The notes below the pieces were generated by a model. It was given only the letters and a program-made list of their open reading frames with translations, was not told the DNA's origin and searched no databases. From Neocallimastix sp. 'constans' (lineage: Eukaryota), in contig JBODTK010000110.1 in assembly GCA_050613775.1 (NCBI GenBank), positions 62,001 through 126,000 on the forward strand: a stretch of DNA of 64,000 bases, given 5' to 3'. The translations under genes and the position numbers were made by a program. This document shows positions 596 through 49,161 of this stretch, piece by piece. Each line of letters starts with the position of its first letter. Positions within the stretch are counted from its first letter, which is position 1.

Positions 596-803
596 AATAA
601 TTTTTATTATCATTATTTAAACATATATATACATATTTATTTATTTATATTTATTTAATTCTATTCTATTTTATTTTTATATATATTAAAGGTATTTATT
701 AGTTGTTTATTTATTTTATATTATATATATATAATATATATAATTTATTTATTTTATTTATTTGTTATTTATAATAATAATAATAATAATAATAATTATA
801 AAT

Positions 804-6526
<5,723 letters not shown>

Positions 6527-7883: not shown

Positions 7884-10280
7884 TTAACGAGTCCATTGTC
7901 TACCATCACTACTTCTTTTACCAGTGGCATCAGTAATTGAAGATTTTTGTTTTAAAAAGTGTTCTTTACCTTCAATGGCTTTCTTATTTTTATAACCAGC
8001 ACCAAAGCCACCACCACCACCACGTCTTTGAATTCTATCAGTTTTTTGGCTGGCACCAATAGTGATATTAACATGAGGAGGTACGGTGAAACCGTAAGCT
8101 TTAGCTACCTTTTGTAAATCTAATGAATTGATATTGAAAATCTTTTTAAGAGAATGGGAAGCATAAGCTTGAAGATAGGAACGGTAACCATCACGAGCAG
8201 ATTTATTTAAGTAATAATTCTTTTCAACAAGTTTTTCAAGTTGAGATTGAACATTAGCAATCTTATTTAATGGGAATTGGTATTCATTTAATGGAACCTT
8301 GGCGTGTTTAAGGAAGCGAAGGAAACCTAATTCTGTTGGTAATAAGAATAAGAGGGCATGACCACTTCTATTTAAACCACGGGCTGTACGACCAACACGA
8401 TGAATGTATTCCTTTGGATCATCTGGTGGATCGTATTGAATAATCCAATCAACAGCTGGAATATCTAAACCACGGGCAGCAACATCAGTACATAATAAAA
8501 TGCCAGTATCTGAATTAACAAATTCAAAGAAAGTATTAGTTCTCTTTTGTTGCTTTTGACGACCATGAAGTTCTAATACTGGAATATCAATATAATTTAA
8601 TAATTCTGAATGGTATTTAACAGAATTACAAGAAGAAAAGAAAACAATAACCTTCTTTTTTAAATTTTTCTTTAAGAATGTAAATAATAATAAGAACCTT
8701 TTATCACTTGGACATATCACATAACCTTGTTCTAAACCTTCTACAGTTGCGCTTTCTTTATGCTCATCAACATTAATATATAATGGAGAACGCTTTAATG
8801 ATACACGGGCTAAATCTTCAACCTTAGTAGTTTGAGTAGCAGAGAAGAACATTGTTTGACGTTCTTTTATTATTATTGTTTAATTTGAAATGATATTAAT
8901 TTAATTTATTTAAAGGATATTTGATAATTATTCATTTAAATATTATTTATATAAATATAAATTTATATATATAGTTTTTATAATTAAATATAAATTAATT
9001 AATAATAATAATAAAACAAAATAAAATACAATTATTTAATCATTAAATTTTTTAAATATATATAAAAAACTGTCATTTAAATTTATATAAATTCATTAAT
9101 ATTTAATTTATTATTTAATATTTAATTACCCTTTGGAAGTAATTTAATAATTTGTTTCATTTCTTCTTCGAAACCCACTTCTAAAATTCTATCGGCTTCA
9201 TCAATAACTAAACATTTTAAGTTCTTGAATATAAAACCTTTGGTATTCTATTTAAAAAAATTATATTTATATAATATGTATGTATAAAATGAAAATTTAT
9301 ATAAAAAATATTTGTTAAAAAAAATATAATTTTGATAATATTTTTCTGTTATACTTTAATAAAGATAATCCAAAAAATAATACTAATAAATATATATAAT
9401 AAATAATATAAAAGACTAAATATATATTTATATATTAAATTTATATAATTATAAGCTAAAAAATAATAATAATAATAATAATAATAAAATAAAATAAAAT
9501 AATAATATACATATATTATAATAAACCAAAAATTTTTAAAAAATAAAATTAAAAAAGATAGTTTGAAGAAATTTACCTGAAGATGATCTAATAAACGACC
9601 TGGAGTAGAAACTAATAAATTAACACCTTTAGCTAATTTTTCAGCTTCTGCTTTTCTGTTAGCACCACCCATTACAATACCAAAAGTTTGATGATGATAT
9701 TTCATTAATTCCTTAGCAACACCGAAAATTTGAAGAGCTAATTCACGAGTTGGTGAAATAACAATAACACCAGTACCATTTCTTGGTTTGAACTTTAAAC
9801 GAGCTAACATTTCAACTACTGGAATTAAAAAGGCTAAAGTCTTACCAGAACCAGTCTTAGCGGCACCCAAAATATCGCGACCAGTTAAAGCAGCTGGAAT
9901 TGAACGAGCTTGAACTTCAGTCATTTTCTTAAATCCCATTTCTTTAATAGCTTTTAAGGTATTTTCTGAAGCCTTAAGAGCTTGGAAATCCTTATCTATT
10001 TCTTTATCATCTTTATATTTAGAATAATAATATTTATTTCACGTTCAAAATTTTATTAACAAGTACATTGTTTTTAATATTAAGAAAAAAATAATTTATA
10101 ATATGTTGTAAAACAAATGATTTCAGGTTTATATATATTTTTGATTTATAAAATGATATTTTGTAATAATTATTTTAATTATATTTTTTAAGTAAATTTA
10201 TTAAATATAAATATTTATTTTTAATCCAGTAATAATATTTATATGAGTTTAGTATATACGATATATATAAAAAAATAATA

Positions 10281-11061: not shown

Positions 11062-11358
11062 GTTTTATTCATTTTTAAACTTTTAAAAAAATTGAAGTTT
11101 TATTTTTTTATATAAAAATATTTATAAATAATTAAATAAAATATTTCTATATTACTATTTAATAATGTGTAATAATTAAAATATAATAAATAATAAATAA
11201 TATATAATAAATAATAAATAATATATAATAAATAATAAATAATAAATAATAAAAAATAAATAATAATATAATACTAATTAAATAATATTTAATATTTAAT
11301 AATAATTTTAGAATGTTTTGTTTTTTTTGAAATAAGAATGAAAAGTTCTAATTTTTAT

Positions 11359-12142
11359 TGGTATGGTTCATATAATTTTAGGAATATAATAATAATTAAC
11401 ACAAATAATAAAATTACAATAAAAATAATTTTGTTTTAAAATCAATGTTTATTTATTTAAATTTATAAAAGAAAAATAATAATATAATTATTTATTTAAT
11501 AAAAAGAAAGTTATTGATTATATTTTATTTCACTAAAATTACATGTATTTATATTTTTTATCAAATTAAAATTTGTAAAGCCTAACTATTTTTTTAATAA
11601 ACTAATTACTAATTATTTTTATAAATAAAACATTTAAATTGAAATTGAATTATTATTTTAGTTAATAATATTATTGTTATAAATAGTAGTTATATATTAT
11701 TGAATTATTAATTATTTAATAATAGTTTAATACTAATATATATAAAATAAAAATAAAGAGATTATACAGAATATTTTATTGTGGTTTAGTTAAATTTAGT
11801 AATTAAAAATAAATTTAAATTGATAACGAAAATTTTAATAACTAATTAAATAGATTTGATTATTTTCAATATAACATAATACAAAAGAAATATAATATTA
11901 ATATATTAAGTGGGCAAGGACAATATTCTTGGCTAAAGATTTTTAATACATTATAATGGAATCGGATCGATAATTCAAAAAGGAATTATAAGTTAATTAG
12001 TGATTTATTAACTTAAGATTTTTATTTAGTAATATTTGAAGAATATTGGAAAGTTCCAATTATATAGAATAGAATAATCTATAAGGTTAGAATAATTTAT
12101 ATTATTCTAGCACAATTAGTATTATTTGTTCATTCTGTATTA
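11359..12142 (-). repeat. 3' LTR of element A
   Basis: Same length as 17576-18359 and no differences seen by eye; starts TGGTATGG and ends CTGTATTA on + strand. Confidence 0.95.
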
Positions 12143-12165
12143 AGATGCCCCCGCTAAGACTCAAG

Positions 12166-15100
12166 CTAGGTAGAAGCTGAGTTAAACTTGACAATATTTT
12201 TCAAATGAACATTACGATTCATTTGTATATTAGTAGCAGGATCAGCTAAAGTGACTGTATTGAATTGTTTCTTTACCACTTTCATAGGTCCAACAAAGTA
12301 AGGTTCTAATTTAGTTCGATTAAAGTTTCTTACTAGTACTAAATCACCTGGTTTTATTCTTTTAGCTTGATTCATACTGGTCTTTTCTTCTCTCCTAGTA
12401 GCCCAATACTTCGAAGCATTTTTGATATTAGATGCGGCCTCCATTACCCATTGGTAGTGTGATACAAATTTTTCCAGTAGAATTTCGTCAGAAGACTTAT
12501 TTATACCCTTAGTTGGTCTGGCAGCAATGTCAAAAGGTTGTTGGTCCTCCCTTCCATAAACTAATTCAAAACTTGAATGGTTGGTGATTGAGTTTTTAGT
12601 AGTTCTTAAAGCCCAAAGTGCAGATGGTAAAATTTCATCCCATTCTTTGTGTTGTTGTTCTAGTAATCGTAATAATTTTCCAATTTCTTTATTACGATTC
12701 TCAACTAAACCATTGCTTTCAGGATGATATGGAGTGATAAATTTAACATATACATCATATAAATCAAGGAAGATTTTTGTCATATCTGATGTAAATTGTG
12801 TTCCATTATCAGTAGTGATAATTTGAGGTACACCGTGTCGAGCAAATACATTAATTAAAAATTTTATCACATCCTGAGAAGTAACATTTTCAGTGGGCTC
12901 TGCCTCAACCCATTTAGTAAAATAATCAACCACAACGATTATATATTGATTATTATTTCTGGTTTTACTTAGAGGTCCTATAATGTCCAATCCTAAGTGT
13001 GTAAATGGTCCTTCCACTTCAGTTGGTTTATCTTCCGTTGGTTCAGGGTATGGTTGAGATTTATTTAATTGACATTTTTCACATTTACCTATAATTCGCT
13101 TAATGTCATTAACCATATTGTTCCAATAGTAGCTCTTTTTCAAACGTTGGTATGTCTTGTAATAGCCTTCGTGTCCTATACTGTGTGCTTGAAAAATTAA
13201 TTGAAGTTTTTCTTTTGTATCTGTAACTAATTTTCTATAATTATTGCCATCAACAAAGTAGTCCACACCATCAATTGTCGTAAATTTTTCTTCAATAAAT
13301 TCCTTAATGGTTCTTGAAAGCAGGTTTTCATCTTGTTCTTTGATAATTTGTGTTGTTAAGATAACTTTTTCTTTTTCATTTTTCATTCTTGATAAAGCGT
13401 CTGCAACAACATTATTCTTCCCAGCTTCATATCGTAAATCAATTCCTAACATACTGACAGTCAAACACCATCTTGTATGGCGAGAGTTTTGTGGTTCCTT
13501 ATTTTTAAGTAATCCGATTAAGGGTCTATGGTCTGTATATACTATAGTTTGCTTAGGATTTCCCATAATATAAGATTTTAATTTATTAATACAGTAAATT
13601 AGAGCGGCACCTTCTAGATCCGTAATTCCATAATTCTTTTCCGATTTAGATAAACTTCTACTAATATAATGAACCGGATGCTCCTTTCCAGTTTCATCAT
13701 CCTTTTGTAAAAGCACACCGCCTATTCCATCATAGGAAGCATCTGTTCTTATAATAAATTCTCTATCAAATCTAGGAAATCTTAATATTGGGGCATTGAT
13801 TAATCTTTCCTTAAGAATTTTAAAACTTTCTTCTTGTTCCTTTTTCCATTCAAACTTAATACCTTTTCTTAATAGAGTGCAGAGAGGAGCAGTAACTTTT
13901 GCAAAGTCCTTAATAAAATTTCTATAATATCCAATGGCTCCTAAAAATGATCGAAGTTCATGAATGTTAGAGGGAGCCTTCCATTCTTTAATAGCTTCAA
14001 CTTTGTTTTCCAATGGACTTAAACCTTCTGAGGATACTTTATGTCCAAGTACTTCTACTTCAGTTTGCATGAAAGAACACTTTTCGATATTGATTTTTAA
14101 CTTATGTTCCTTGAATATTTCTAAGACTTGTTTAAGATGTTCTAGGTGTTCTTCTTCAGTTCTTGAGTAGATTAAAATATCATCGATAAAGTTATAGACA
14201 CATTTTCCTATTAAGGGAAATAGTATACGGTTCATTTCTCTTTGGAATGTAGCTGGAGCACCTGTTAAACCGAAGGGCATTACCTTGAATTGGTAGTTTC
14301 CGAACTTAGTTGTAAAGGTAGTGATTTCAACACTATCATCATCCATTAATATTTGATGATAACCGGAATAAAGATCTAATGTTGAAAAGATTTTTGCTCC
14401 ATCTAAGCTATCAAAAATTTCCTCAATATTTGGTAAAGAATAAGAATCCTTCTTAGTTGCTTCATTTACTTTCCTATAGTCAATACACAGGCGCCATTTA
14501 CCGTTCTTTTTAGGCACAAGTACTACTGGTGATGACCATTCTGAACATGAAGGTTCAATTAATCGTTTATATATGAGTTTGGTTAATTCTTCTTTTAAGA
14601 TATCTGTTTTTAATTTACTAAGTCGATAAAATTTTTGTTTAATAGGTTTAACTCCTTCCTTAAGAATAATTTTGTGTGGTGATAAATCTGAAGGTGTTAA
14701 TTCTTCAGAAGAAGTTGCAATTATATCAATATATTCTTCAAGTAATTTAGTAATAGCTTCTCTATAATTTGAATTAATTGTACTTTGAAAAACTGTGTCA
14801 TATATATATTTTATGGGTGGTAATCCTTCAATCGTTTTCAATTGTTGCTTAGCTTCTTGGTGATTCAATGCTTTGATCACACATAATAATTTTTCTTCGT
14901 CATCATATTCATTATTAATAGGTGTAATTTCTTCAATTAAACCTTGATCATTAAATCGACAAAGACTATATCTAATTGGATGTATAAATAACTGGTTATC
15001 AATTTGAGTTTTGAGGTTGATTAATATATCATAGAATGGATCCTCCTTGTCTATAATTCTACACGTAACAAGTAGTTCTAGTTCATTAATTTTTACGGGA

Positions 15101-16167
15101 ACTTTGATTAACACATCTTCTGAGTAATCATCATTCATTGTTGCTAAACGTATTCGTCCTGCACTAACTCCTATAGGTTCATACTGATAAGGTAATTTAT
15201 CTAAAAATTGCTTTGTGATAATACTTAAGTTACTACATGAATCTATTAAAGCCTTACCACGAACTCCATCTACTATTACATCAACCATAGCAATATCATC
15301 TTCTTGTGGTTCATGATGTTTACTTTTATATGTATGATCTATATTGTTCGTTATTATTGTAGTAGCACACATATTATCCACTGCACCTGAAATTTTAGTA
15401 TTATTCTTTTCTAATTTAAGTCCTTGTGATACTTGAGACCGTATCTTTGGAGCAACGTCCAATAATTGTCCAAATGTAATATTGCAATTACTGGAGTTTA
15501 AATCTTTGATCACGTCATAACTATCACAATCAGTTTGCATTTGTATTCTTTTTGGAATTCTAGTTGGCATAATTTCAGTTGACTTTTCTGATGATTTTCC
15601 TTGAATTAATTTATTTAAAGTTTGTTTAGAATTATTTCCTTCCTGAGAAGTTTCTTCATTAATAATATTAACAATACTATTTTTATTATTTTCCACAGAA
15701 GTACTAGTACTAGCTCTTTCCTTATCTCTTAGCTCTTTCTCAATCCTCTTTTCTTTCTCTATTCTGGGTTGAGCCATAATCGAAGGATGTAATTGAGTTG
15801 TTGGCTTTTTGACTGGTCGCGATGTTCCCCTTAATTTATTTTCTTTTTGTTTTCGTAAACCTGGAGTAACTATTGGCTTAGGATCATCTCTTAGACTACG
15901 GTGAACCCTCTTTCCTCTTTGGTCACTAGTCTCTTCATCTTTAGGATTTGCCTTTCTCTTTATAACGTTTACTAAGTAATCCAATTCTTTGGAACCATCC
16001 GACTCATCATCAAAATCTTCGTAATAATCCGTAGTAGTACCTTCTTGGAAATCAGCAATTTCTTCATAATCATCATCTTCTTTTAAGTCAACTGTTTTGG
16101 GACGATGGCAGACTGAAGCAATTTTTTTGACGATGGGAGTGCTTCTACTCCCTTTTAGTGGTTTAAA
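12166..16167 (-). CDS. pol: Pol of element A (aspartic protease, RT, RNase H, integrase with GPY/F-like tail), made as Gag-Pol by -1 frameshift
   Basis: ALIDSCSN protease, WRLCIDYRKVN / MPFGL / FIDD RT, TDAS RNase H, H-H-C-C zinc motif and DDE integrase, KLEPYFVGPMKV. The frame stays open from the slippery site at 16161-16167. Confidence 0.95.
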   Translation of the reverse strand, partial: FKPLKGSRSTPIVKKIASVCHRPKTVDLKEDDDYEEIADFQEGTTTDYYEDFDDESDGSKELDYLVNVIKRKANPKDEETSDQRGKRVHRSLRDDPKPIVTPGLRKQKENKLRGTSRPVKKPTTQLHPSIMAQPRIEKEKRIEKELRDKERASTSTSVENNKNSIVNIINEETSQEGNNSKQTLNKLIQGKSSEKSTEIMPTRIPKRIQMQTDCDSYDVIKDLNSSNCNITFGQLLDVAPKIRSQVSQGLKLEKNNTKISGAVDNMCATTIITNNIDHTYKSKHHEPQEDDIAMVDVIVDGVRGKALIDSCSNLSIITKQFLDKLPYQYEPIGVSAGRIRLATMNDDYSEDVLIKVPVKINELELLVTCRIIDKEDPFYDILINLKTQIDNQLFIHPIRYSLCRFNDQGLIEEITPINNEYDDEEKLLCVIKALNHQEAKQQLKTIEGLPPIKYIYDTVFQSTINSNYREAITKLLEEYIDIIATSSEELTPSDLSPHKIILKEGVKPIKQKFYRLSKLKTDILKEELTKLIYKRLIEPSCSEWSSPVVLVPKKNGKWRLCIDYRKVNEATKKDSYSLPNIEEIFDSLDGAKIFSTLDLYSGYHQILMDDDSVEITTFTTKFGNYQFKVMPFGLTGAPATFQREMNRILFPLIGKCVYNFIDDILIYSRTEEEHLEHLKQVLEIFKEHKLKINIEKCSFMQTEVEVLGHKVSSEGLSPLENKVEAIKEWKAPSNIHELRSFLGAIGYYRNFIKDFAKVTAPLCTLLRKGIKFEWKKEQEESFKILKERLINAPILRFPRFDREFIIRTDASYDGIGGVLLQKDDETGKEHPVHYISRSLSKSEKNYGITDLEGAALIYCINKLKSYIMGNPKQTIVYTDHRPLIGLLKNKEPQNSRHTRWCLTVSMLGIDLRYEAGKNNVVADALSRMKNEKEKVILTTQIIKEQDENLLSRTIKEFIEEKFTTIDGVDYFVDGNNYRKLVTDTKEKLQLIFQAHSIGHEGYYKTYQRLKKSYYWNNMVNDIKRIIGKCEKCQLNKSQPYPEPTEDKPTEVEGPFTHLGLDIIGPLSKTRNNNQYIIVVVDYFTKWVEAEPTENVTSQDVIKFLINVFARHGVPQIITTDNGTQFTSDMTKIFLDLYDVYVKFITPYHPESNGLVENRNKEIGKLLRLLEQQHKEWDEILPSALWALRTTKNSITNHSSFELVYGREDQQPFDIAARPTKGINKSSDEILLEKFVSHYQWVMEAASNIKNASKYWATRREEKTSMNQAKRIKPGDLVLVRNFNRTKLEPYFVGPMKVVKKQFNTVTLADPATNIQMNRNVHLKNIVKFNSAST
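16115..16167 (-). promoter_or_regulatory. -1 ribosomal frameshift signal of element A: U UUA AAC + 8-nt spacer + H-type pseudoknot
   Basis: Sense: UUUAAAC cacuaaaa GGGAGU a GAAGC ACUCCC aucgucaaaaaaauu GCUUC. pol is in the -1 frame relative to gag. Confidence 0.85.
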
Positions 16168-17072
16168 TAATTTTCATAAAACTTCTTGCGGTTATTTTCC
16201 AATATAGAATTTAATTTAGGACAGTTTCGTTTGGTATGTCCTTCATTGCTACAAAACCAGCAAGTACTAATTTTCATTTCTTTCATCTTGTTAGTGATAT
16301 TTTCTATAGATACATTTTTGTGGGTTTTTGGTTTGTTAAAATCATTTGAAATGTTCTTATTAAAATTACTTTTAGAGTTAAGGAGATTGTAATGAGTCTT
16401 ATCATAATATTCAGTACTATTTTTAATAGATAAACGATCAACTTTTTCGGCTATAGCGAACGCTTTGGTAATAGAAATATGGTCTTTAAGCATAACCTTT
16501 CTCCATGCGTCAGGATTATTGGTTAAGGAATCTGCATAATCTAAAACACTAATTTTTCTTCTTCTCTTTTTATCCAATTTATGGTACAAAGATCTATAAC
16601 GGACATTAAAATCTTTAACTTTCTCGTTCTTCTTTATTTTCATGGAACGTAATTCTCGTAACAAATTGGTTTGATCTTCTTTAAGTCCATAGAAAGTCTT
16701 CAGATGATTTATGATTTCATCAAGGCTTGGGTAGGTGCTAGTAGATTCACTTTCTTCATCATCTTCTCCTTCACTATCGCTATCGAAATCAGAATCTTCA
16801 TCTTCAGTAAGGTCATTTCCATCTTCTAGTTCTTGGATAATTTCTCTTGGTTCTCCAAAAGCCGTTAATATACAAGCAGTAAAAATAGTTTCAGGATCCT
16901 TGATATGTTGGTATTTTATCCATGCCTTTAACTCATTTGCCCAGGAGTTGATGTCAAGGTTTTGTTTAGTAAGCTTTTCAAAATCTTTTAATTCTTTCTT
17001 TAATTCTCTGAAGCTAAGCTTACTTTCTGGAGTACTCTCTGTTGGAGTACTGGAAGTACTGGATGTTCTCAT
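16155..17072 (-). CDS. gag: Gag of element A with acidic insert and C-terminal CCHC zinc knuckle
   Basis: 305-aa ORF; CWFCSNEGHTKRNC; clearly homologous to gag of element B. Confidence 0.92.
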   Translation of the reverse strand: MRTSSTSSTPTESTPESKLSFRELKKELKDFEKLTKQNLDINSWANELKAWIKYQHIKDPETIFTACILTAFGEPREIIQELEDGNDLTEDEDSDFDSDSEGEDDEESESTSTYPSLDEIINHLKTFYGLKEDQTNLLRELRSMKIKKNEKVKDFNVRYRSLYHKLDKKRRRKISVLDYADSLTNNPDAWRKVMLKDHISITKAFAIAEKVDRLSIKNSTEYYDKTHYNLLNSKSNFNKNISNDFNKPKTHKNVSIENITNKMKEMKISTCWFCSNEGHTKRNCPKLNSILENNRKKFYENYLNH

Positions 17073-17223
17073 AAAATAAAATTTATTGTATCTATAGAAT
17101 GCTAAACCTCGTAATGTATAAATTGTTATAAAAAAGTAAAAATAAAAAAAATTAAAAAAAATAATCTTTTAACTAATAAAATTATTAATTATTTATTATT
17201 AATCACTTATTAAATTATAATAA

Positions 17224-17389
17224 TCGTGCAATCTGATAGTACACACTATCTGACGTGCAGCTTACCTCTTGAAAGGTGTCATGCCACGCGTGTGCCACGG
17301 TTACTATTTTCAATATAAAAAATAGCAGTCCAGAGCCTACTAGCCCAATTACTATGTAGGATAAACTTAACCCGGAAATCTATGCACGA
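17224..17389 (-). ncRNA. Conserved structured cis-RNA in the 5' leader of element A
   Basis: GC-richer island highly similar to 24691-24850 in element B, with compensatory changes in several stems. Confidence 0.7.
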
Positions 17390-17549
17390 ATATTAGTTTA
17401 ATTTAATAATAATTAATATTTTTAACAATTAATAATAATTAGTTAAAAATATAAAAATTGTTTTTTAAAAAAAAAATTTTTTGTTTTATTAGAAAAATTA
17501 TTTATTAATATTATAATTTTATCCCCAATGTATTAATTTATTATTATAT

Positions 17550-17567
17550 TCCCCGATATCTCCACCA
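17550..17567 (-). promoter_or_regulatory. Primer-binding site complementary to the 3' 18 nt of tRNA-Ala (element A)
   Basis: TGGTGGAGATATCGGGGA is the complement of UCCCCGAUAUCUCCACCA; the UCUCC-A-CCA acceptor end with U70 is typical of tRNA-Ala. Confidence 0.85.
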
Positions 17568-17575
17568 ATTTTTCA

Positions 17576-18359
17576 TGGTATGGTTCATATAATTTTAGGA
17601 ATATAATAATAATTAACACAAATAATAAAATTACAATAAAAATAATTTTGTTTTAAAATCAATGTTTATTTATTTAAATTTATAAAAGAAAAATAATAAT
17701 ATAATTATTTATTTAATAAAAAGAAAGTTATTGATTATATTTTATTTCACTAAAATTACATGTATTTATATTTTTTATCAAATTAAAATTTGTAAAGCCT
17801 AACTATTTTTTTAATAAACTAATTACTAATTATTTTTATAAATAAAACATTTAAATTGAAATTGAATTATTATTTTAGTTAATAATATTATTGTTATAAA
17901 TAGTAGTTATATATTATTGAATTATTAATTATTTAATAATAGTTTAATACTAATATATATAAAATAAAAATAAAGAGATTATACAGAATATTTTATTGTG
18001 GTTTAGTTAAATTTAGTAATTAAAAATAAATTTAAATTGATAACGAAAATTTTAATAACTAATTAAATAGATTTGATTATTTTCAATATAACATAATACA
18101 AAAGAAATATAATATTAATATATTAAGTGGGCAAGGACAATATTCTTGGCTAAAGATTTTTAATACATTATAATGGAATCGGATCGATAATTCAAAAAGG
18201 AATTATAAGTTAATTAGTGATTTATTAACTTAAGATTTTTATTTAGTAATATTTGAAGAATATTGGAAAGTTCCAATTATATAGAATAGAATAATCTATA
18301 AGGTTAGAATAATTTATATTATTCTAGCACAATTAGTATTATTTGTTCATTCTGTATTA
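17576..18359 (-). repeat. 5' LTR of element A
   Basis: Direct repeat of 11359-12142; adjacent to the PBS. Confidence 0.95.
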
Positions 18360-18361
18360 TT

Positions 18362-18702
18362 TGTTAAGGTTTTAGAGAATTAAATAAAAATAAAGTAAGA
18401 AACACAAATTTTATTTATTTATTTATTATTTTTATTTATAAATTTATTTGATTTTATTTTATTTTATTTTATTTGATTTGATTTTATTTTATTTTATGAT
18501 ATTTAAAAATTAGTAGCAAAATTTACAACTATTTATACTTTTTTTTCAAGGCATAAAAGTTGTTCTTGCCACTAAATTACATTTTATTATTATTTTTCTT
18601 TTTATATATAAAAACTATTAAATTTAAATTGATTTTTATAATCAATTATATAAAATTTAATTATAACAATATAAATAAAATACATTTATAATATTAATAA
18701 AA

Positions 18703-18741
<39 letters not shown>

Positions 18742-19229
18742 CTATCTAAAATATTACTAATAAGAATTTATTTAATTGGCTAAAATTTTTATTACACTCT
18801 GTTAAAATATTCAAATAAAAATAAAAATACTATTCTAATATAAAGGTTTTTAATAAAATAAAATATTTTTCAATATAAAATAAAACATTTCGATATAAAA
18901 TTTTATAATAAAAGTTAAAATATAATATATAAATTTTTAATTATCAATATATAAAAATATTATTAATACAAATTTTCATTATTAATATAAAAATAAAAAA
19001 AATAAGATTTATTATTAATATTGTTAATATAAGTTTTAAATATATAAAAATATTACTATTAATATAAGATTTAATATAAAAATTATAAAGTTTAATATAA
19101 TTTTTGATCTAATTTTTAATCTTTGAATTTAAAAATTTATTAAAGTACAAAAATAATAATGTACACATAATGTATTAGAAATAAATCGTAGATTTAATTA
19201 AGAATGCATTATTTAGTACATTCTTATCA
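18362..19229 (-). repeat. 3' LTR of element B
   Basis: TGTTAAGG...CTTATCA, same length as 25549-26416 and no differences seen by eye. Confidence 0.95.
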
Positions 19230-19247
19230 AGATGCCCCGACGAAGAC

Positions 19248-22200
19248 TCAAGCTTCTCTGTAAGCGGAGTTAAACTTTACTAAATTTTTAAAATGAACAT
19301 TCCTATCGAGTTGTTTCCCAGTTTTCTGATCGATTAAGGTTGCCGTGTTGAATTGAATTTTTAAAATTTTAAATGGTCCATTGTAATATGGTTCTAGCTT
19401 AGTGCGGCTAAAGTTTCTAACAAGAACAAGATCACCAGCTTTTAATTCTTTTCCTTTTTTCATACTTATTTGTTCTTCTCGTCTTGTTGCCCAATACTTG
19501 TTAGCATTCTTCACATTTTCGCATGCTTCTCTAGTCCATTGATAATGACGAACAAATTTTTCCATTAAAATTTCATCATACGATTTACCTGCATTTTCAA
19601 TTGTTCTTATGGCTATATCATAAGGCTGTTGGTCTTCTCTTCCATATACTAATTCAAAACTAGAATGTCCGGTAGCTGTGTTTTTGGTAGTTCGAAGTGC
19701 CCATAAAGCAGAAGGTAAAACTTCATCCCAATCTTGATTTTTCCTTCCTAATAAACGAAGTAATTTTCCAATTTCTTTATTTCGGTTTTCAGTGAGACCA
19801 TTGGATTCAGGGTGATAGGTAGCTATGAATTTTACATAAACATCATAAAGATCAAGAAAGATTTTAGTCATATCAGAAGTGAATTGGACTCCATTATCTG
19901 TAGTAATAACTTGAGGCACACCATGTCTTGCAAAAACGTTTATTAAAAATTTAATTATATCAGAGGAAGTTATGTTTTCAGTGGGTTCGGCTTCAACCCA
20001 TTTGGTAAAGTAATCAACAGTTACTATAATATATTGATTATTATTTCTTGTTTTTGGTAACGGTCCTATAATATCTAATCCTAAATGCACAAAGGGACCC
20101 TCCACTTTAGTTGGATGGTTTTCGGTTGGTTCTGGATATGGTTGAGGACGATTTAACTGGCATTTTTCACAATTACTAACAATTCTTTTGATATCTTTAA
20201 TCATATGATTCCAATAAAAGTTTTTCTTAAGTCTTTGATATGTTTTGTAATATCCTTCGTGGCCAATATTATGAGCTTCTAAAATTAATTTAAACCTTTC
20301 ATTTTCGTCCGTTATTAATTTTCTATAATTTCCATTGTCGATAAAATAATCTTCACCATCAATAACAGTAAACTTTTCATTAATAAATTCCTTTATAACT
20401 TTAGATAATAATTCTTCATTATTTCCATTAGTAATTTTTGTTAATAATATCTTTCTCTCTTCCTTACTTTTCATTCTTGAAAGAGCATCAGCTAACACAT
20501 TCTTTTTGCCTGATTCATATTTTATATTAATTCCGAGCATACTAGCGGTTAGACACCATCTTGTTTGCCTTGCATTCAAAGGTTCTTTATTCTTAAATAA
20601 ACCAACTAATGGTTTATGATCTGTGTAAATAGTTGTAGGTAATGGATTTCCTTCAATATAAGATTTAAATTTAGTCATACAGTAAAACAAAGCGGTTCCT
20701 TCTAAATCGGTAATACCATAATTCTTTTCAGCTTTCTTTAAACTTCTACTTATAAAGTGTATTGGATGCTCCTTACCGGTTTCTTCTTCTTTTTGTAAAA
20801 GAACTCCACCAATTCCATTATACGAAGCATCAGTTCTAATGATAAAAGGTTTGTCAAATGACGGAAATTTTAGAATAGGTGCATTGATTAATTTTTCTTT
20901 TAGGAGTTCAAAGCTTTCTTGTTGTTCTTTATTCCATTCATATTTGGTATTCTTTTTCAATAATTTACATAAAGGTGAGGTAATTTGAGCATATTTAGGA
21001 ATAAAATCACGATAATATCCCACTGCTCCTAAAAATGATCTTAATTCATGAAGTGATGAAGGGGCTTCCCACTTCTTAATAGCTGTTATCTTACTTTCCA
21101 TGGGACTTAATCCTTTAGTAGTAAGTTTGTGACCTAATACATCAACTTCAGTTTGAAGAAAATGGCACTTTTCAATATTAATTTTTAACTTGTTTTCTTT
21201 AAATACTTCTAATACTTGTTTAATATGAATTAAATGTTCTTCGATACTTTTTGAATAGATCAAAACATCATCAATAAATACATAAACAAATTCACCAATA
21301 AAAGGGAATAAAATTTTATTCATTTCTCTTTGGAAGGTTGAGGGAGCTCCAGTAAGTCCAAAAGGCATAACCTTAAATTGATAATTTCCAAACTTAGTAG
21401 TGAAAGTGGTTACTTCAACGCTTTCTTCATCCATTAAGATTTGGTGAAAACCAGAAAATAAATCAAGAGTTGTAAATATTTTAGCTCCTCCGAGACTATC
21501 AAAAATTTCATCTATATATGGAACTGAATAAGAATCTTTTTCTGTCATATCATTGACTTTTCGGTAGTCAATGCACAAGCGCCACTTTCCATTGTGTTTT
21601 AGAATGAGTACTACTGGAGATGACCATTCTGAACAGGATGGTTCTATCAATCCTTTCTTAATAAGCTTTGTAAGTTCTTCTTTTAAGATATCTGATTTTA
21701 ATTTAGTTAACCTATAACTTCTTAATTTTACTGGCTTTGCATTTGCTTTCAAACGGATCTTATGTGGTGAAAGTTTAGAAGGAGTTAGTTCTTCTGTTGA
21801 AGTGGCAACTATGTCAATCATTTCTTTGAGAATTTTAATAATTTGTTCTTTATAATCTTTATTTAAGGTACTTAAAAATTCATCACTCTCAATAAATTCC
21901 ATTGGAGTTAATTCCTTTATAATTTCCTTTTCATTATTCGTTTCTTTAACTTTTCTAATAGTGCAAATTATACTTTCTTCATCATAATATTGATTATTTA
22001 TTTTAGCTATTTCTTCGTATTCACTTTCTGACAAAAGTTTACATAGACTGTTTAAGGTTGGATGAATAAATAAACAATGATCGATTTGAGTTTTAAAGTT
22101 TATTAACATATCATAAAATGAGTCTTCTTTCTCAATAATTCTAAAGTCCGCATTAAATTCATAATTATTAATTTTTACTGGTAATCGAACAATAATTCCT

Positions 22201-23258
22201 TCCGAGTATTCTTCATCTTGTGTTGCTAGTTGGATTCTTCCACGACTTTTTCCAACTGTTTCATATTCACCAGGTAATTTATCAAAATACTGCTTAGTAA
22301 CGATGCTTAGGTTACTACAAGAATCAATTAAAAGTTTTCCTAGTACTCCGTCAACACTTGCATCAACCATTGCTAAGTCTTCTTCGGCTACTTCATTACT
22401 TTTACTTATGTAGCTATGGTCATAGTTATTTACTAATAAAGTTCGTGCTATTACATTGTCTACAGTTCCAATTATTTTAGACTTTTCTAACTTTAAACCT
22501 TGAGTTAATTGTGAACGAATTTTAGGACATGCATTCAAGAGTTGACCTATCGTAATACTGGATTTAAGATTATTTAAATCATCCATAATATTGTAAGGTT
22601 CTTTATTATTCATCATTTTGATATTCCTTTTTACTAATTGAGTATTTCCATTATTAGTTTCCTTAGTTTTTGTTGAAATTAATTTTTCCAAAGTATTAGT
22701 TTTATTTTGTTGATTATCTTTATTCATTTCTAGATCTTCTATTTCATTATCGATTACAAGTATATCTTCAGATTCAACTTTTTCCTTTCCTTTTGATGAA
22801 TAATTGTTGTTTTCTTCTTTACTTTCTCTTACTCTTGTCATATTTCTTAATTCCTTTTCTTTTTGTTTTTCTTTGTTAATATTTGGTTGAGTTAAAATTG
22901 AAGGAAGTATTTGATTTTTATAAACTTTATTTGGTTTATTATGCAGCTCATTTTCTTTCTTCTTTCTTAAAGCAGGAGTTGCAAAAGGACGTGGATTATC
23001 TTTTAAACTTTTATGTACTTTCTTGGAATTATTTTCTTCTTTTTCGCTGTTATTATCATTCATTTTTCTTTTTACAGCATTTATAATGATATCATCCTCA
23101 CTTTCAGTTGTGTCACTAAAATCAGATTCTTCAGATTCTTCGTTAAAGGAATTATTATCAATTGGAGTATTCTTAGTAAAAGTATTATTTTGTAAATTAT
23201 TTAATGAAGCTATTGTTTTGTCATTGGGAGTGCTTCTGCTCCCATTTAGAAGTTTAAA
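19248..23258 (-). CDS. pol: Pol of element B (PR-RT-RH-IN, GPF motif, no chromodomain), expressed by -1 frameshift
   Basis: LLIDSCSN, WRLCIDYRKVN, FIDD, TDAS, HHCC, DDE, KLEPYYNGPFKI. The frame is open from the slippery site at 23252-23258 to the annotated ATG at 23063. Confidence 0.95.
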   Translation of the reverse strand, partial: FKLLNGSRSTPNDKTIASLNNLQNNTFTKNTPIDNNSFNEESEESDFSDTTESEDDIIINAVKRKMNDNNSEKEENNSKKVHKSLKDNPRPFATPALRKKKENELHNKPNKVYKNQILPSILTQPNINKEKQKEKELRNMTRVRESKEENNNYSSKGKEKVESEDILVIDNEIEDLEMNKDNQQNKTNTLEKLISTKTKETNNGNTQLVKRNIKMMNNKEPYNIMDDLNNLKSSITIGQLLNACPKIRSQLTQGLKLEKSKIIGTVDNVIARTLLVNNYDHSYISKSNEVAEEDLAMVDASVDGVLGKLLIDSCSNLSIVTKQYFDKLPGEYETVGKSRGRIQLATQDEEYSEGIIVRLPVKINNYEFNADFRIIEKEDSFYDMLINFKTQIDHCLFIHPTLNSLCKLLSESEYEEIAKINNQYYDEESIICTIRKVKETNNEKEIIKELTPMEFIESDEFLSTLNKDYKEQIIKILKEMIDIVATSTEELTPSKLSPHKIRLKANAKPVKLRSYRLTKLKSDILKEELTKLIKKGLIEPSCSEWSSPVVLILKHNGKWRLCIDYRKVNDMTEKDSYSVPYIDEIFDSLGGAKIFTTLDLFSGFHQILMDEESVEVTTFTTKFGNYQFKVMPFGLTGAPSTFQREMNKILFPFIGEFVYVFIDDVLIYSKSIEEHLIHIKQVLEVFKENKLKINIEKCHFLQTEVDVLGHKLTTKGLSPMESKITAIKKWEAPSSLHELRSFLGAVGYYRDFIPKYAQITSPLCKLLKKNTKYEWNKEQQESFELLKEKLINAPILKFPSFDKPFIIRTDASYNGIGGVLLQKEEETGKEHPIHFISRSLKKAEKNYGITDLEGTALFYCMTKFKSYIEGNPLPTTIYTDHKPLVGLFKNKEPLNARQTRWCLTASMLGINIKYESGKKNVLADALSRMKSKEERKILLTKITNGNNEELLSKVIKEFINEKFTVIDGEDYFIDNGNYRKLITDENERFKLILEAHNIGHEGYYKTYQRLKKNFYWNHMIKDIKRIVSNCEKCQLNRPQPYPEPTENHPTKVEGPFVHLGLDIIGPLPKTRNNNQYIIVTVDYFTKWVEAEPTENITSSDIIKFLINVFARHGVPQVITTDNGVQFTSDMTKIFLDLYDVYVKFIATYHPESNGLTENRNKEIGKLLRLLGRKNQDWDEVLPSALWALRTTKNTATGHSSFELVYGREDQQPYDIAIRTIENAGKSYDEILMEKFVRHYQWTREACENVKNANKYWATRREEQISMKKGKELKAGDLVLVRNFSRTKLEPYYNGPFKILKIQFNTATLIDQKTGKQLDRNVHFKNLVKFNSAYREA
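23206..23258 (-). promoter_or_regulatory. -1 frameshift signal of element B: U UUA AAC + 7-nt spacer + pseudoknot
   Basis: Sense: UUUAAAC uucuaaa UGGGAG ca GAAGC a CUCCCA augacaaaacaaua GCUUC. Confidence 0.85.
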
Positions 23259-24157
23259 GACTTTTTGGAATATATTTCTTTTTTATTTTTTTCCATAATC
23301 TTATTTAATTGAGGGCAATAGTATGAGTAATGACCTTCTTCCTTACAGAAGAAGCAAGTTTTAACGGATAAATTTCTCATTTTCTGGGTTGATTCTTCTA
23401 TAATATCTTGAGGTTTCGGTTTATTATTTGTTTGATTTGTTTGGAAAGTTTCGTTTCTTCTTTTAGGATAAAGTCTTGAAGTAGTACTGTTTTGATTATT
23501 TTGATTATGTTGGGAATTATTAACATTATAGGTATTAATATTATTGTTCCTTACAGAAAGTCTATCTACTTTCTCGGCAATTTTGAAAGCTTTATCCATA
23601 CTTATATCATCTTTAAGGGATAATTTCTTCCAGGCTTCATAATTATTTTGAATAGAATCAATATAATCTAGTACACCAATTCGCTTTCTTCTCTTTTTAT
23701 CAAGTTTAGTGTACAAAGTTCTATATCTTACATTAAAGTCTTTAATCTTTTCGTTTCTTTTAATTCGCATTGCACGAAGTTCTTTAAGAAGTAAATTTTG
23801 GTCTTCTTTAATACCGTAAAAATTTTCAAGACTTGAAATAATTTTTTCAAGGGAAGGAAATTTAATATCATCATCAACATTTTCTTCTTCATCATCATCT
23901 TCTTCTTCATCTGATGAATCATCCCTTTCATCATCACTATCTTCTCCCAAATCTTCAATAACGCGTTGTACTTCACCAGAGCTGGTAAGTAAACAAGCAT
24001 TAAATATTGTTTCTGGATCTGTAATACCTTGTATCTTGATCCAAAGTTTTAATTCAGTAGCCCAGGACTTAATATCTAAATTGTCCTTGCTAAGTTTCAC
24101 AATATCTCTTAATTCTTTTTTCAATTCTTTAAAGCTCAAAGTTGTTTCCTTGGACAT
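23246..24157 (-). CDS. gag: Gag of element B with acidic insert and CCHC knuckle
   Basis: CFFCKEEGHYSYYC. Probable start MSKETTLSFKELKKEL (ATG 24157) aligns with LSFRELKKEL of element A gag. Confidence 0.9.
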   Translation of the reverse strand: MSKETTLSFKELKKELRDIVKLSKDNLDIKSWATELKLWIKIQGITDPETIFNACLLTSSGEVQRVIEDLGEDSDDERDDSSDEEEDDDEEENVDDDIKFPSLEKIISSLENFYGIKEDQNLLLKELRAMRIKRNEKIKDFNVRYRTLYTKLDKKRRKRIGVLDYIDSIQNNYEAWKKLSLKDDISMDKAFKIAEKVDRLSVRNNNINTYNVNNSQHNQNNQNSTTSRLYPKRRNETFQTNQTNNKPKPQDIIEESTQKMRNLSVKTCFFCKEEGHYSYYCPQLNKIMEKNKKEIYSKKSLNF

Positions 24158-24332
24158 TTTGTTTAAATATTTCTTGTTGTATATTAATGAGGTGATTAAA
24201 TAAGAATAAATTTGGAAATACAACTTTAAAAATATAATTTAATAGGTAATTTAATATCGAATCAATTTTTAAAACAATATATTTTAGTAACTTTTGAAAA
24301 TAATAATTTTATTTGCTTTCTTTAGTAGATAT

Positions 24333-24520
24333 AAGCTCGAAATCCTTATCGACAACTTAGTAGAAATTATAAAGCACGAGGTTCTTTTCGACTACTTTAT
24401 TAAGAATAATTTTTAAGTTCGAAATCTTTATCGACAACTCAATAGAATAATTTAAGTTCGAAATCTTTATCGACAACTCAATAGAATATTTTTCAAGCTC
24501 GAAACCTTTATCGACCACTT
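24333..24520 (-). repeat. Five ~40-bp tandem hairpin repeats in the leader of element B
   Basis: AAG(C/T)TCGAAATC(T/C)TTATCGACAACT-like units start at 24333, 24372 (diverged), 24415, 24454 and 24495. Confidence 0.9.
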
Positions 24521-24690
24521 GAATTTTGTAATTTAGTATATTTGTAGTAATAAATTTAGAAGCAAAGTTTTATTTATTATTTTCACCTTTCAAAAATTTT
24601 TCTTTTTAAACGATAAATATTGTATTGTTATAGCTAATAAAATTATTAATTAATTATAATTATTAAATACAAAAAAATAATCTTTATTGT

Positions 24691-24850
24691 CGTACAATCT
24701 GATAGTACACACTGTCTGACGTGCAGCTTACCTAATGGTGTCATGCCACGCGTGTGCCACGATTACTATATTCAATATAAAATATAGCAGTTCAGAGCCT
24801 ACTAGCCCAATTACTATGTAGGATAAACTTAATCCGATAATCTATGTACG
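24691..24850 (-). ncRNA. Conserved structured cis-RNA in the 5' leader of element B
   Basis: Homologue of 17224-17389. Confidence 0.7.
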
Positions 24851-25524
24851 GAATAAAAAAAAATTTTAAAAGTATTCAATAATATTTTTATTAACTAATA
24901 AAAATTAACTAAAAACACAATATTTTCAAGTAAATTAAGATTCTTTTACAGGAATTATTAAACAAATAAAGTATCAGTAATAAAAAAAAATAAAAAAAAT
25001 TTAAATGGCGAAGTTAGCCAAAGTCTGATACTTTATATAATAAAGTGCCTTATAACTAGCACAAAGAAAAGTAAAAAAAAATATATATAAAAAAAACAAT
25101 CTTACGCCTTCGGTGACGTAAGCTCCTTATTCGCCAGTGCTTGGAAAGTACCCGCACCTTCGTGTGTTGAAACGTTGAAGGCTGAACTATTATTACCGGG
25201 TCGGTAACCAAATACCTTCGTCTACTTTCCAATTAATCTCCAAATTAACTACTATTCAATAACCTACTATGAATAGAGTTAATTTGTTGCTATCTGAGAA
25301 TACACTGTGTATGAGCTCTATCCGCTCCTTGTTATAATTTTACAAAATTTGTTTTTTTTTTTTTTTTGAATCTTAATTTTACTTATTTAAAAAAAAATTT
25401 TTTTATATATATATCAAACAAGCGCCATAGGTTAATCAAAGGATTAACGACTTACTTGTTTATCAATATAAAATAAAAAAAAATTAAAAAAAATCTATGT
25501 TATTTACTATTATTTCTATTTAAT

Positions 25525-25542
25525 TCCCCGATATCTCCACCA
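25525..25542 (-). promoter_or_regulatory. tRNA-Ala primer-binding site (element B)
   Basis: Identical 18-mer to the PBS of element A. Confidence 0.85.
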
Positions 25543-25548
25543 TATAAA

Positions 25549-25889
25549 TGTTAAGGTTTTAGAGAATTAAATAAAAATAAAGTAAGAAACACAAATTTTA
25601 TTTATTTATTTATTATTTTTATTTATAAATTTATTTGATTTTATTTTATTTTATTTTATTTGATTTGATTTTATTTTATTTTATGATATTTAAAAATTAG
25701 TAGCAAAATTTACAACTATTTATACTTTTTTTTCAAGGCATAAAAGTTGTTCTTGCCACTAAATTACATTTTATTATTATTTTTCTTTTTATATATAAAA
25801 ACTATTAAATTTAAATTGATTTTTATAATCAATTATATAAAATTTAATTATAACAATATAAATAAAATACATTTATAATATTAATAAAA

Positions 25890-25928
<39 letters not shown>

Positions 25929-26416
25929 CTATCTAAAATATTACTAATAAGAATTTATTTAATTGGCTAAAATTTTTATTACACTCTGTTAAAATATTCA
26001 AATAAAAATAAAAATACTATTCTAATATAAAGGTTTTTAATAAAATAAAATATTTTTCAATATAAAATAAAACATTTCGATATAAAATTTTATAATAAAA
26101 GTTAAAATATAATATATAAATTTTTAATTATCAATATATAAAAATATTATTAATACAAATTTTCATTATTAATATAAAAATAAAAAAAATAAGATTTATT
26201 ATTAATATTGTTAATATAAGTTTTAAATATATAAAAATATTACTATTAATATAAGATTTAATATAAAAATTATAAAGTTTAATATAATTTTTGATCTAAT
26301 TTTTAATCTTTGAATTTAAAAATTTATTAAAGTACAAAAATAATAATGTACACATAATGTATTAGAAATAAATCGTAGATTTAATTAAGAATGCATTATT
26401 TAGTACATTCTTATCA
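25549..26416 (-). repeat. 5' LTR of element B
   Basis: Direct repeat of 18362-19229. Confidence 0.95.
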
Positions 26417-26432
26417 TATTATGTATAATAAA

Positions 26433-26864
26433 GCCATGTTGGTCCAGTCGGTTAGGACGATACAGGTCACTGTAGAGGGCGGGGTTCGAATCCTCGGCAT
26501 GGCACCAAATAATCGGATGAGGTTTCTATCCTGGGATATCATGAGACCACACGTGATGTCCATAAGGCTTTCCCTCAGATGATTATTTCACCCAACCCTG
26601 ATACTACGCTTTGAATTGAAGCATAGACCTTGATGATTGTAAAATTTCCAATCGCCAATGATTAATGGTTCCGTTCTGATGCTCGTGGTCATTAGAGATA
26701 TATGTAGGAACGTTAGGAATGCATCTCCGGGCAGTGTGTAACGACGATTGAGAGCGGCGAAGCTGATACAGTATGCCAATAACTCATCACCTTACAGTTA
26801 ATTAATAACTGTATGGCCATATGGGAGATGGGTACCCATATGTGCAAGTCTATGTTTTTTTTTT
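26433..26864 (+). mobile_element. tRNA-derived SINE, copy 1 (T-rich tail); its left TSD is split by the two LTR elements
   Basis: tRNA-like head 26433-26507 with A box TGGTCCAGTCGG, B box GGTTCGAATCC and encoded CCA. Nearly identical inverted copy at 35668-36112. Right TSD TTTTTATGTATAATAAA at 26865-26881 matches 11352-11358 + 26423-26432. Confidence 0.92.
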
Positions 26865-26993
26865 TTTTTATGTATAATAAAGAAATATATGTAAAGAATA
26901 TAAATTTAAAATTTTTTACGTGTAACGAAATTTAATTTATTTAAGATTAATTAATAATCAATAAATAGATTAATATTTGTGTAATTTAATTAT

Positions 26994-27306
26994 TAAAAAA
27001 AAATAAAATAAAATAAAAAAATAAAAAAATGAAAAAAATAAAAAAAATAAAAAAAATAAAAAAATGAAAAAAATAAAAAAAATAAAAAAAATAAAAAAAT
27101 GAAAAAAATAAAAAAAATAAAAAAAATAAAAAAATTAAAAATTTAAACATTTAAAAAATAAAAAAACAAAAATAAAAAAATAAAAATAAAAATAAAAAAA
27201 TGAAAAAAATAAAAAAATAAAAAAATGAAAAAAATAAAAAAATAAAAATAAAAATAAAAAAATAAAAATAAAAAAATAAGAAAATAAAAAAAATAAAAAA
27301 ATAAAA
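26994..27306. repeat. Low-complexity (A6-8)T/(A)nTG satellite
   Basis: Repeating AAAAAAAT / AAAAAATG units. Confidence 0.8.
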
Positions 27307-35014: not shown

Positions 35015-35667
35015 GTTGTTAATTATAAAATTATAATTTTATTTAAAAAAAAAATAAAATATTATATAATTTCGAAGTAGTGTTGAAAATAAATTTTTTT
35101 TAAAAAAATTATTATTTACTATTTGATTTTTTTCCACTTTATGTCATAGTTATGATTGGTTAAAATAATTATAATAAATTATTAATTAAAAAAAATTTTT
35201 TTAATAAATAATTTTTTCATTTATTATTATAAAAATTGTATAATACTTTTTTTTTTTTTTTTTTATAGAATAAACTTTATTTAATAATATTTATTAAAAA
35301 AAAATATATGAAAATTATACTAATTTACCATAATTTTATAGTACTTAAACATAATCCATACATCATATTACCATATCTTATCCAGTTTTATATTAATGTC
35401 ATTTTAATAACTATTATTTCATATTTTAACTAATATTTGATTATATTATATTTTTAAAGGTTAATAGAAACTTTTTTATAAAAAAAGAATTATAATAAAT
35501 TTAAAATAGATAAGTAAATTTTTTTTAATAATTGAAAAATGTTTTTAAAAGTATTTTTTAAAAAATTGTACATTATAGCATTGATAAATAACTAATACTT
35601 TTTGATATTTTAAATAATATAATTGATGTTAATACATTAGTAAAAATTGTTGAATACTTTCTTCATA

Positions 35668-36112
35668 AAACATAGACTTGCACATATGGGTACCCATCTC
35701 CCATATGGCCATACAGTTATTAATTAACTGTAAGGTGATGAGTTATTGGCATACTGTATCAGCTTCGCCGCTCTCAATCGTCGTTACACACTGCCCGGAG
35801 ATGCATTCCTAACGTTCCTACATATATCTCTAATGACCACGAGCATCAGAACGGAACCATTAACTCCTCCCTAGTGGGTGTAATCATTGGCGATTGGAAA
35901 TTTTACAATCATCAAGGTCTATGCTTCAATTCAAAGCGTAGTATCAGGGTTGGGTGAAATAATCATCTGAGGGAAAGCCTTATGGACATCACGTGTGGTC
36001 TCATGATATCCCAGGATAGAAACCTCATCCGATTATTTGGTGCCATGCCGAGGATTCGAACCCCGCCCTCTACAGTGACCTGTATCGTCCTAACCGACTG
36101 GACCAACATGGC
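35668..36112 (-). mobile_element. tRNA-derived SINE, copy 2, with 16-bp TSD GAATACTTTCTTCATA
   Basis: Reverse complement of 26433-26857 plus 20 extra bp (35864-35883). TSD at 35652-35667 and 36113-36128. Confidence 0.95.

Positions 36113-42722: not shown

Positions 42723-49161
<6,439 letters not shown>

Follow-up and report, generated by a model that had tools for sequence, protein, structure and literature searches.

The locus considered here lies in the gut fungus Neocallimastix sp. 'constans' (contig JBODTK010000110.1, positions 62,001 to 126,000, a stretch of 64,000 nt that is referred to below as the window), and it raises the question of why two long terminal repeat (LTR) retrotransposons, A and B, stand one behind the other immediately upstream of a short interspersed nuclear element (SINE) with a tRNA-like, RNA polymerase III (Pol III) promoter. 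The answer proposed here, to which we assign a probability of about 0.7, is that A and B inserted upstream of the SINE because their integration complex was tethered by TFIIIB/TFIIIC, which is predicted to bind the A and B boxes of the SINE. SINEs are, on this proposal, likely to be occasional targets of Pol III-directed integration. The evidence comes from the target-site duplications (TSDs) nested at this locus and from junctions between B and SINE heads in public sequencing runs.

Nested insertions upstream of the SINE

The features on which the argument depends are the following, in window coordinates.

11352..11358, plus strand: left remnant of the SINE TSD; its last 4 nt (11355–11358, TTAT) are the left TSD of A
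11359..18359, minus strand: element A, an intact Ty3/gypsy LTR retrotransposon of 7001 bp; LTR ends TA...CA on the minus strand
17576..18359, minus strand: 5′ LTR of A; outer end 14 nt from SINE +1 prior to the insertion of B
18358..18361, plus strand: left copy of the B TSD, TATT, which contains the last 2 nt of the LTR of A
18362..26416, minus strand: element B, an intact Ty3/gypsy LTR retrotransposon of 8055 bp; LTR ends TG...CA
25549..26416, minus strand: 5′ LTR of B; outer end 16 nt from SINE +1
26417..26432, plus strand: 16-nt spacer, made up of the right TSD of B (26417–26420), the right TSD of A (TTAT, 26419–26422) and the remainder of the SINE left TSD
26433..26864, plus strand: tRNA-derived SINE; a tRNA-like head (26433–26504, shortened anticodon loop) is followed by CCA, some 350 nt of body and a T tail (26855–26869)
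26440..26451, plus strand: Pol III A box of the SINE, consensus match
26483..26493, plus strand: Pol III B box of the SINE, consensus match
26865..26881, plus strand: right TSD of the SINE
35667..36112, minus strand: second SINE copy with a 16-nt TSD (35652–35667, 36113–36128) and no LTR upstream, which serves as an internal control

The SINE has the properties expected of a tRNA-derived family: a head with A and B boxes, an unrelated body, a simple tail, a TSD and dispersed copies (two in the window, and high depth in the sequencing runs). A local E-value search with the Rfam tRNA model recovers the head at 38 bits (E = 1.6e-6) and ARAGORN calls it tRNA-???; at gathering thresholds, Rfam returned no match over the whole window. 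The second copy is identical to the first except for a 20-nt indel.

The stack itself is as the preliminary description of this DNA had placed it, both in its coordinates and in its 4-bp TSDs, and the two LTRs of each element are 100% identical, indicating that both insertions are recent. Element B is flanked by TATT at 18358–18361 and 26417–26420, and a 5-bp version of this duplication fails. Removal of B in silico leaves TTAT at 11355–11358 and directly after 18359 as the TSD of A, for which a 5-bp version likewise fails. The empty site rebuilt in this way equals the right TSD of the SINE (26865–26881) over 17 nt and no further. In both elements it is the 5′ LTR that faces the SINE, with its outer end 14 nt (A) or 16 nt (B) from SINE +1. 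Each of the two TSD 4-mers has a background frequency of about 4% in local intergenic DNA, and their nesting therefore makes a misjoined assembly unlikely.

The preliminary description held that the TSDs give the full history of the locus. The order of A, then B, does follow from the nesting; the placing of the SINE before both, however, depends on three ambiguous T residues. The unambiguous SINE TSD is only 14 nt long (26419–26432), and the three additional T's to the left of A match nothing but the T tail of the SINE. Consequently, the TSDs alone fail to prove that the SINE came first, and an order in which the SINE inserted last with a 14-nt TSD also fits. Sequencing runs bear on this point. 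The 3′ junction of the SINE is unchanged over 146–159 nt in runs X1, X5, and X8, while the window's B junction is absent from the contigs of X5 and X8, although such a hole proves nothing and the junction is also missing from X1 and X2. The SINE likely inserted before B, as X5 and X8 carry its 3′ junction without the B junction of the window. Every X5 or X8 contig that covers 26423 reads A at this position, where the window has G. An allele with A only, or an empty one, would align over only about 37–41 nt and might be undetectable, so that its absence is uninformative.

Junctions between B and SINE heads at probable other loci

Contigs of X1, X5, X8, and X15 were aligned to positions 25400–27000 and contigs of X2, X5, X8, and X13 to positions 26370–26480. 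In three of these six runs (X1, X5, and X8), the LTR end of B is joined to a SINE head by a spacer that differs from that of the window, each time at single-copy depth. In the X1 contig, the spacer is about 16 nt long and has the listed substitutions G26423A and A26428C, which lie 33 nt inside the ends of the contig. Record 18 of X5 spans 66 nt over 26391–26454 with five substitutions, two insertions and an 18-nt spacer, and record 25 of X8 spans 63 nt over 26393–26457 with four substitutions, two deletions and a 14-nt spacer. The bridging contigs are best read as loci other than the one in the window, since the SINE keeps its right junction unaltered in these runs and the right TSD is identical to the spacer of the window.

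Together with the 14 nt of A and the 16 nt of B at this locus, the spacers of about 16, 18, and 14 nt in X1, X5, and X8 place the insertions at a similar short distance upstream of SINE heads. The narrowness of this range is partly built into the test, which detects only spacers near 16 nt and which also dictates the shared orientation of the bridging contigs. Furthermore, the SINE-head part of these contigs is only 22–29 nt long, such that the parent tRNA gene is a less likely but conceivable target. By chance, 0.002–0.025 B–SINE junctions would be expected per genome, and fewer than 1e-6 stacks of A and B, in a model with 250–500 insertions, 500–1000 SINEs (both rough copy numbers) and the 70–200 Mb that is usual for gut-fungal genomes. 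These rough numbers put the enrichment over chance somewhere between about 40-fold and several hundred-fold. A further contig, record 26 of X8 (70 nt, single copy), aligns to 26417–26459; its first 27 nt do not align and stop about 16 nt short of a SINE head. It may represent a different LTR family at that distance and is not counted as support.

Several results weigh against a tethered integration complex, or limit its reach. Bridging contigs are absent in X2, X13, and X15, and each positive run holds only one despite the hundreds of copies of B. (A single X15 contig within the LTR of B has a depth of 3274, versus 5–23 for its neighbours; since summed depths are not copy numbers, the copy number of B is taken only as 'hundreds'.) Random AT-rich spacers of 14–18 nt fall within seven edits of the window's spacer 35–57% of the time, and at this detectability one bridging contig per positive run suggests few B–SINE junctions in each genome; on rough numbers, they would make up about 1% of the insertions of B. 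The LTR ends of B also run into DNA other than SINEs, as seen in loose ends behind 26416/26417. Among the matches listed, these number 4 + 2 in X5, 4 + 2 in X8 and 5 + 2 in X13, with one more behind 26422. Their consensus is AT-rich and not GC-rich where a tRNA would lie; no tRNA gene target is seen among them, although the groups are tiny and mixed, probably include the internal junction with the polypurine tract (PPT), and are too small to show or exclude one. Additionally, the second SINE copy of the window has no LTR upstream (one of the two copies has one), the integrases of A and B have no chromodomain of the Ty3 kind, and the exact junction of B, spacer, and SINE seen in the window does not occur in the contigs of X1 and X2, which likely represent the source sample but are of such low depth that holes prove nothing.

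Searches outside these runs yielded no insertion site. A metagenome scan with the motif common to both LTR ends returned 119 loci. Only two of them (L011 and L053) are true relatives, and each of these is an internal PPT junction. The remaining 117, in which no tRNA occurs, appear to be chance matches. Collections of viral and prokaryote sequences held no matches to the elements. The earlier suggestion of a lineage of Pol III-targeted Gypsy elements thus gains from the junctions at about 16, 18, and 14 nt, but is narrowed to what is seen at SINE heads. Similarly, the SINE as a landing pad holds at individual loci, as an occasional target: there is one bridging contig per positive run and none in three of six runs, and one of the two window copies is free. 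That SINEs shape the distribution of these elements genome-wide is a broader proposal, which we put forward only tentatively.

The scarcity of B–SINE junctions relative to hundreds of copies, the entry of B ends into non-SINE, AT-rich DNA and the lack of a recognised targeting domain in the integrases would all be accommodated by a loose preference, in which A and B insert mostly into AT-rich DNA with a moderate bias towards DNA that is exposed and bendable at Pol III complexes and with no dedicated tether. Such a preference is less readily reconciled with five out of five distances within 14–18 nt, although the test sees only spacers near 16 nt, and with the use of one site by two families, 2 nt apart. 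Consequently, we consider it unlikely. The order of events could also have been the reverse, with SINEs inserting beside LTR ends, the spacer being the SINE's own TSD, and B nesting at the end of A for reasons of its own. Since the unambiguous part of the SINE TSD is just 14 nt long, the TSDs alone permit the order A, B, SINE; the spacers of 14–18 nt resemble the 16–17 nt of SINE TSDs, and the junctions in X1, X5, and X8 would allow either order of insertion. X5 and X8, however, have this SINE and no B junction in their contigs, the spacer of B differs from the right TSD at −15, and we know of no mechanism that would target SINEs to LTR ends, all of which makes the reverse order improbable.

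A combination of chance and nesting fares worse. Here, the proximity of A to the SINE would be accidental in a genome rich in AT and in repeats, and B would prefer the LTR ends of its relatives, as might be supposed from the cut of B 2 nt inside the LTR end of A and from the relatedness of the two. The three additional B–SINE junctions have no A between, and only 0.002–0.025 junctions are expected per genome, so that this combination is very improbable. Finally, an assembly artefact at long identical repeats could be suspected from the failure to find the exact B–SINE junction in contigs of the likely source sample, but it would have had to produce two 4-bp TSDs that match, each against a background of about 4%, as well as the rebuilt 17-nt TSD next to a SINE 3′ junction that is confirmed in three runs, and it can hardly be credited.

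Two sister families and their integrases

The remaining parts of the two elements, all on the minus strand, are as follows.

11359..12142, minus strand: 3′ LTR of A, 784 nt, 100% identical to 17576–18359
12143..12152, minus strand: PPT region of A, directly before the 3′ LTR; motif also in B
12166..16173, minus strand: pol of A, 1335 aa stop to stop, with protease (PR, LIDSCS), reverse transcriptase (RT, FIDD), RNase H (RH) and integrase (IN)
16135..16167, minus strand: predicted −1 frameshift signal of A, TTTAAAC (16167–16161) with a hairpin 8 nt downstream; putative function
16155..17168, minus strand: gag of A, 337 aa stop to stop, one CCHC knuckle
17548..17567, minus strand: primer-binding site (PBS) of A, 20 nt starting with TGG, the same in B, and separated from the LTR by 8 nt
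18362..19229, minus strand: 3′ LTR of B, 868 nt, 100% identical to 25549–26416
19230..19238, minus strand: PPT region of B
19248..23282, minus strand: pol of B, 1344 aa stop to stop, with PR, RT, RH, and an IN that ends after an SH3-like C-terminal domain
23226..23258, minus strand: predicted −1 frameshift signal of B, TTTAAAC (23258–23252) and hairpin; putative function
23246..24238, minus strand: gag of B, 330 aa stop to stop, one CCHC knuckle
25523..25542, minus strand: PBS of B, 6 nt from the LTR

Both elements have the direct-repeat LTRs, TSD, PBS, and PPT of Ty3/gypsy retrotransposons, a pol in the order PR-RT-RH-IN and an integrase with HHCC and DDE motifs. In each, the LTR begins straight after the same PPT motif, GGGGCATCT, and the slippery heptamer TTTAAAC is followed by a GGGAG/CTCCC hairpin, the predicted −1 frameshift signal. 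The shared PPT register settles an earlier caveat on the right end of A, for which 18356 had been an alternative: it fits 18359, and 18356 is rejected. The LTR of A starts with TA rather than TG, as it also does in the metagenome relative L011, which is 99% identical and has the same LTR–PPT junction. The PBS presumably matches the 3′ end of tRNA-Ala, which we take to be the probable primer; the primer of Ty3 is initiator tRNA-Met. The gap between PBS and LTR is 8 nt in A (17568–17575) and 6 nt in B (25543–25548), the usual gap being 0–3 nt.

Although A and B had been described as two different Gypsy elements with unrelated LTRs, they are sister families of one clade and not independent lineages. 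Their residue identity is 74.8% in RT-RH, 73.8% in IN, and 56% in Gag, and both fall within one clade of 12 (support 99/97) in a tree of 33 sequences, comprising A, B, and 31 relatives chosen from at least 120 database matches listed. The bodies of the LTRs are indeed unrelated, as the best local score between them (92) does not exceed the mean of 100 shuffles (96.7), but a motif of 21–22 nt is shared at the SINE-facing LTR end, where it is present in four of four LTRs and in none of 100 shuffles. A and B thus have in common the 20-nt PBS, the PPT motif, the predicted frameshift signal and this end motif. Because they are sisters, a common habit of inserting upstream of SINEs would probably have been inherited from a common ancestor. 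A B-family relative from the metagenome scan (L053:24-357) is about 93% identical in its internal region and 83% identical in the aligned part of its LTR, with the terminal motif unchanged, which shows that the LTR turns over fast around a conserved end.

The integrases carry the GPY/F-like motif that had been noted before, as GPM in A and GPF in B. The best PDB match of the B pol is Ty3 (E = 9e-106), and residues 67–398 of the 405 in the B IN align with residues 1108–1444 of Ty3 Gag-Pol. With the end of the Ty3 RT at about Gag-Pol 1011, as derived from the alignment, residue 1444 becomes residue 433 of IN, where the SH3 domain of Ty3 ends, and the B IN stops seven residues past the matching position. 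All 33 aligned sequences end 55–70 residues after the GDLV motif, and the alignment of these sequences contains no counterpart of the vestigial chromodomain of Ty3 in the integrases of A and B. The earlier comparison, 'no chromodomain, like Ty3', accordingly stands for A and B but not for Ty3, in which a vestigial chromodomain (aa 446–511) contacts Brf1 and acts as a ruler, and the SH3 domain touches TBP (PMC8632968). The contact by which A and B aim therefore cannot be that of the Ty3 chromodomain with Brf1. By analogy with Ty3, the SH3–TBP contact could have been kept. A structural model built from 74 sequences (predicted local distance difference test, pLDDT, 83.6; predicted template modelling score, pTM, 0.45) shows an N-terminal extension, a zinc finger, the catalytic core, a long helix and a terminal beta-strand domain; a single-sequence model was discarded (pLDDT 38.9). 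Foldseek places the former closest to foamy virus and Ty3 integrases, which is uninformative on the aiming contact.

Mechanism, known systems and setting

The proposed mechanism would begin with insertion of the SINE. Next, TFIIIC would bind its A and B boxes and place TFIIIB upstream, and the intasome tethered at TFIIIB/TFIIIC would make a 4-bp staggered cut at −14/−11 or −16/−13. The Pol III start site lies about 10 nt before the mature tRNA 5′ end (PMC5911963), and with a start site expected at that position the cut would fall 1–6 nt upstream of it. As the promoter is internal and hence intact after insertion, the site could be reused, with the older element pushed outwards. The best guess for the aiming contact, by analogy, would be the SH3 C-terminal domain on TBP, and an alternative would be a contact of RNase H or the IN-NED with Tfc4, of the type described for DGLT-A. 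We predict that insertions go mainly to genuine tRNA genes and only occasionally to SINE copies.

This behaviour has precedents. In DGLT-A, an element of Dictyostelium discoideum and its relatives, 18 of 20 insertions lie 13–18 bp upstream of tRNA genes, and RNase H and IN-NED contact Tfc4 (PMC6101501); its integrase has a 32-aa extension and no chromodomain (PMC5006619). The integrases of A and B resemble it in lacking a chromodomain and in having a short extension after the SH3 domain, and their distances of 14–18 nt lie within the windows of DGLT-A and Ty3. In contrast to A and B, in which gag and pol overlap at a predicted −1 frameshift, DGLT-A has a single gag-pol open reading frame (ORF); its LTRs measure 163–601 nt in the listed families (784 and 868 nt in A and B), and its 20 copies reside in a compact genome, whereas here hundreds reside in a fungus and the target seen is a SINE. 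Ty3 inserts 1–4 nt upstream of where transcription starts, and it also uses Pol III units other than tRNA genes, such as the tRNA relic ZOD1 (PMC5911963). A and B share with Ty3 the PR-RT-RH-IN order and an insertion site a short way upstream of where Pol III starts. They differ from it in an IN that stops after the SH3 domain, with no vestigial chromodomain, and in the direction of the frameshift, which is +1 in Ty3 (PMC5911963) and predicted to be −1 here (TTTAAAC and hairpin). The TSD also differs, being 4 bp in A and B and 5 bp in Ty3. A and B behave like Ty3 and DGLT-A, yet they have neither the chromodomain and +1 frameshift of Ty3 proper nor the single ORF of DGLT-A.

Other Ty3/gypsy elements just upstream of tRNA genes are Tj1 (Schizosaccharomyces japonicus), Tca8 (Candida albicans), and Tyl3, Tyl6, and Ylt1 (Yarrowia lipolytica), all from ascomycete yeasts with tRNA or 5S as listed targets; no SINE target and no early-diverging fungus figures among them in the available text of the review (PMC5911963), where SINEs are mentioned four times, never as a target, and early-diverging fungi are unlisted. 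No paper was found that describes LTR targeting directed by SINEs, or elements of this kind in gut fungi, in a search whose coverage of subscription journals and Repbase-style annotation is thin. Integration upstream of Pol III genes is already documented, in ascomycete yeasts and social amoebae, and has been explained there as an adaptation to compact genomes (PMC5006619 and PMC6101501). What is new here is the host lineage, the type of target and the missing aiming domain. If the proposal is true, Pol III targeting has a further origin in a gut fungus with hundreds of copies, which would test the compact-genome explanation, and mobile Pol III promoters, in the form of SINEs, can redirect LTR insertions. 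With its very short tail, the integrase would offer a minimal system for asking which surface suffices for tethering to TFIIIB/TFIIIC, a matter relevant to safe-harbour integration tools. It is conceivable, although we hold it doubtful, that an entire clade of gypsy elements without a chromodomain is tethered, in gut fungi, to Pol III complexes through a contact of its own, and that an actively spreading SINE keeps making fresh, safe landing sites for it. In that case, the spread of one mobile family would steer the accumulation of another, in a large genome rich in repeats and outside the compact genomes to which tRNA targeting has been ascribed.

The SINE also offers observations of its own. 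In both copies the first nucleotide is exactly that of the mature tRNA (+1), and the acceptor stem is retained together with a CCA encoded in the DNA (26433–26507 in the first copy). This suggests an origin from a mature tRNA and a transcript trimmed at its 5′ end by RNase P. TATG occurs at or near the start of both SINE TSDs, and the SINE body ends in TATG and T's; this suggests priming by microhomology with the target. The T tails are 15 and 4 nt long in the two copies. The 20-nt segment that is absent at 26662–26664 is present in the second copy and in contigs of X1, X5, X8, and X15, and the deletion is flanked by short TTA repeats. No LINE was found among the 15 of 20 window ORFs that were scanned for domains.

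The window has a content of guanine and cytosine of 18.8%. The pol proteins of A and B have named relatives among Orpsp1 gene models in the database matches. By word matching, the stretch 18300–27000 is found in animal faeces metagenome runs; taken with the low GC, the Orpsp1 relatives and a CotH protein encoded in the window, this points to an anaerobic gut fungus (Neocallimastigomycota) as the host. RNA runs X12 and X16–X20 contain 62–68% of the words of that stretch. Host genes around the stack were recognised by Pfam matches.

7884–10038: DEAD-box helicase whose extension is SPB4-like; lies about 1.3 kb to the left of the stack
30824–31408: Bap31
33319–34200: purine/uridine phosphorylase family
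56396–57706: CotH kinase

The long ORFs at 744–3110, 3504–5894, and 42696–46267 gave zero Pfam matches, and a long AAT repeat lies between the first two of them.

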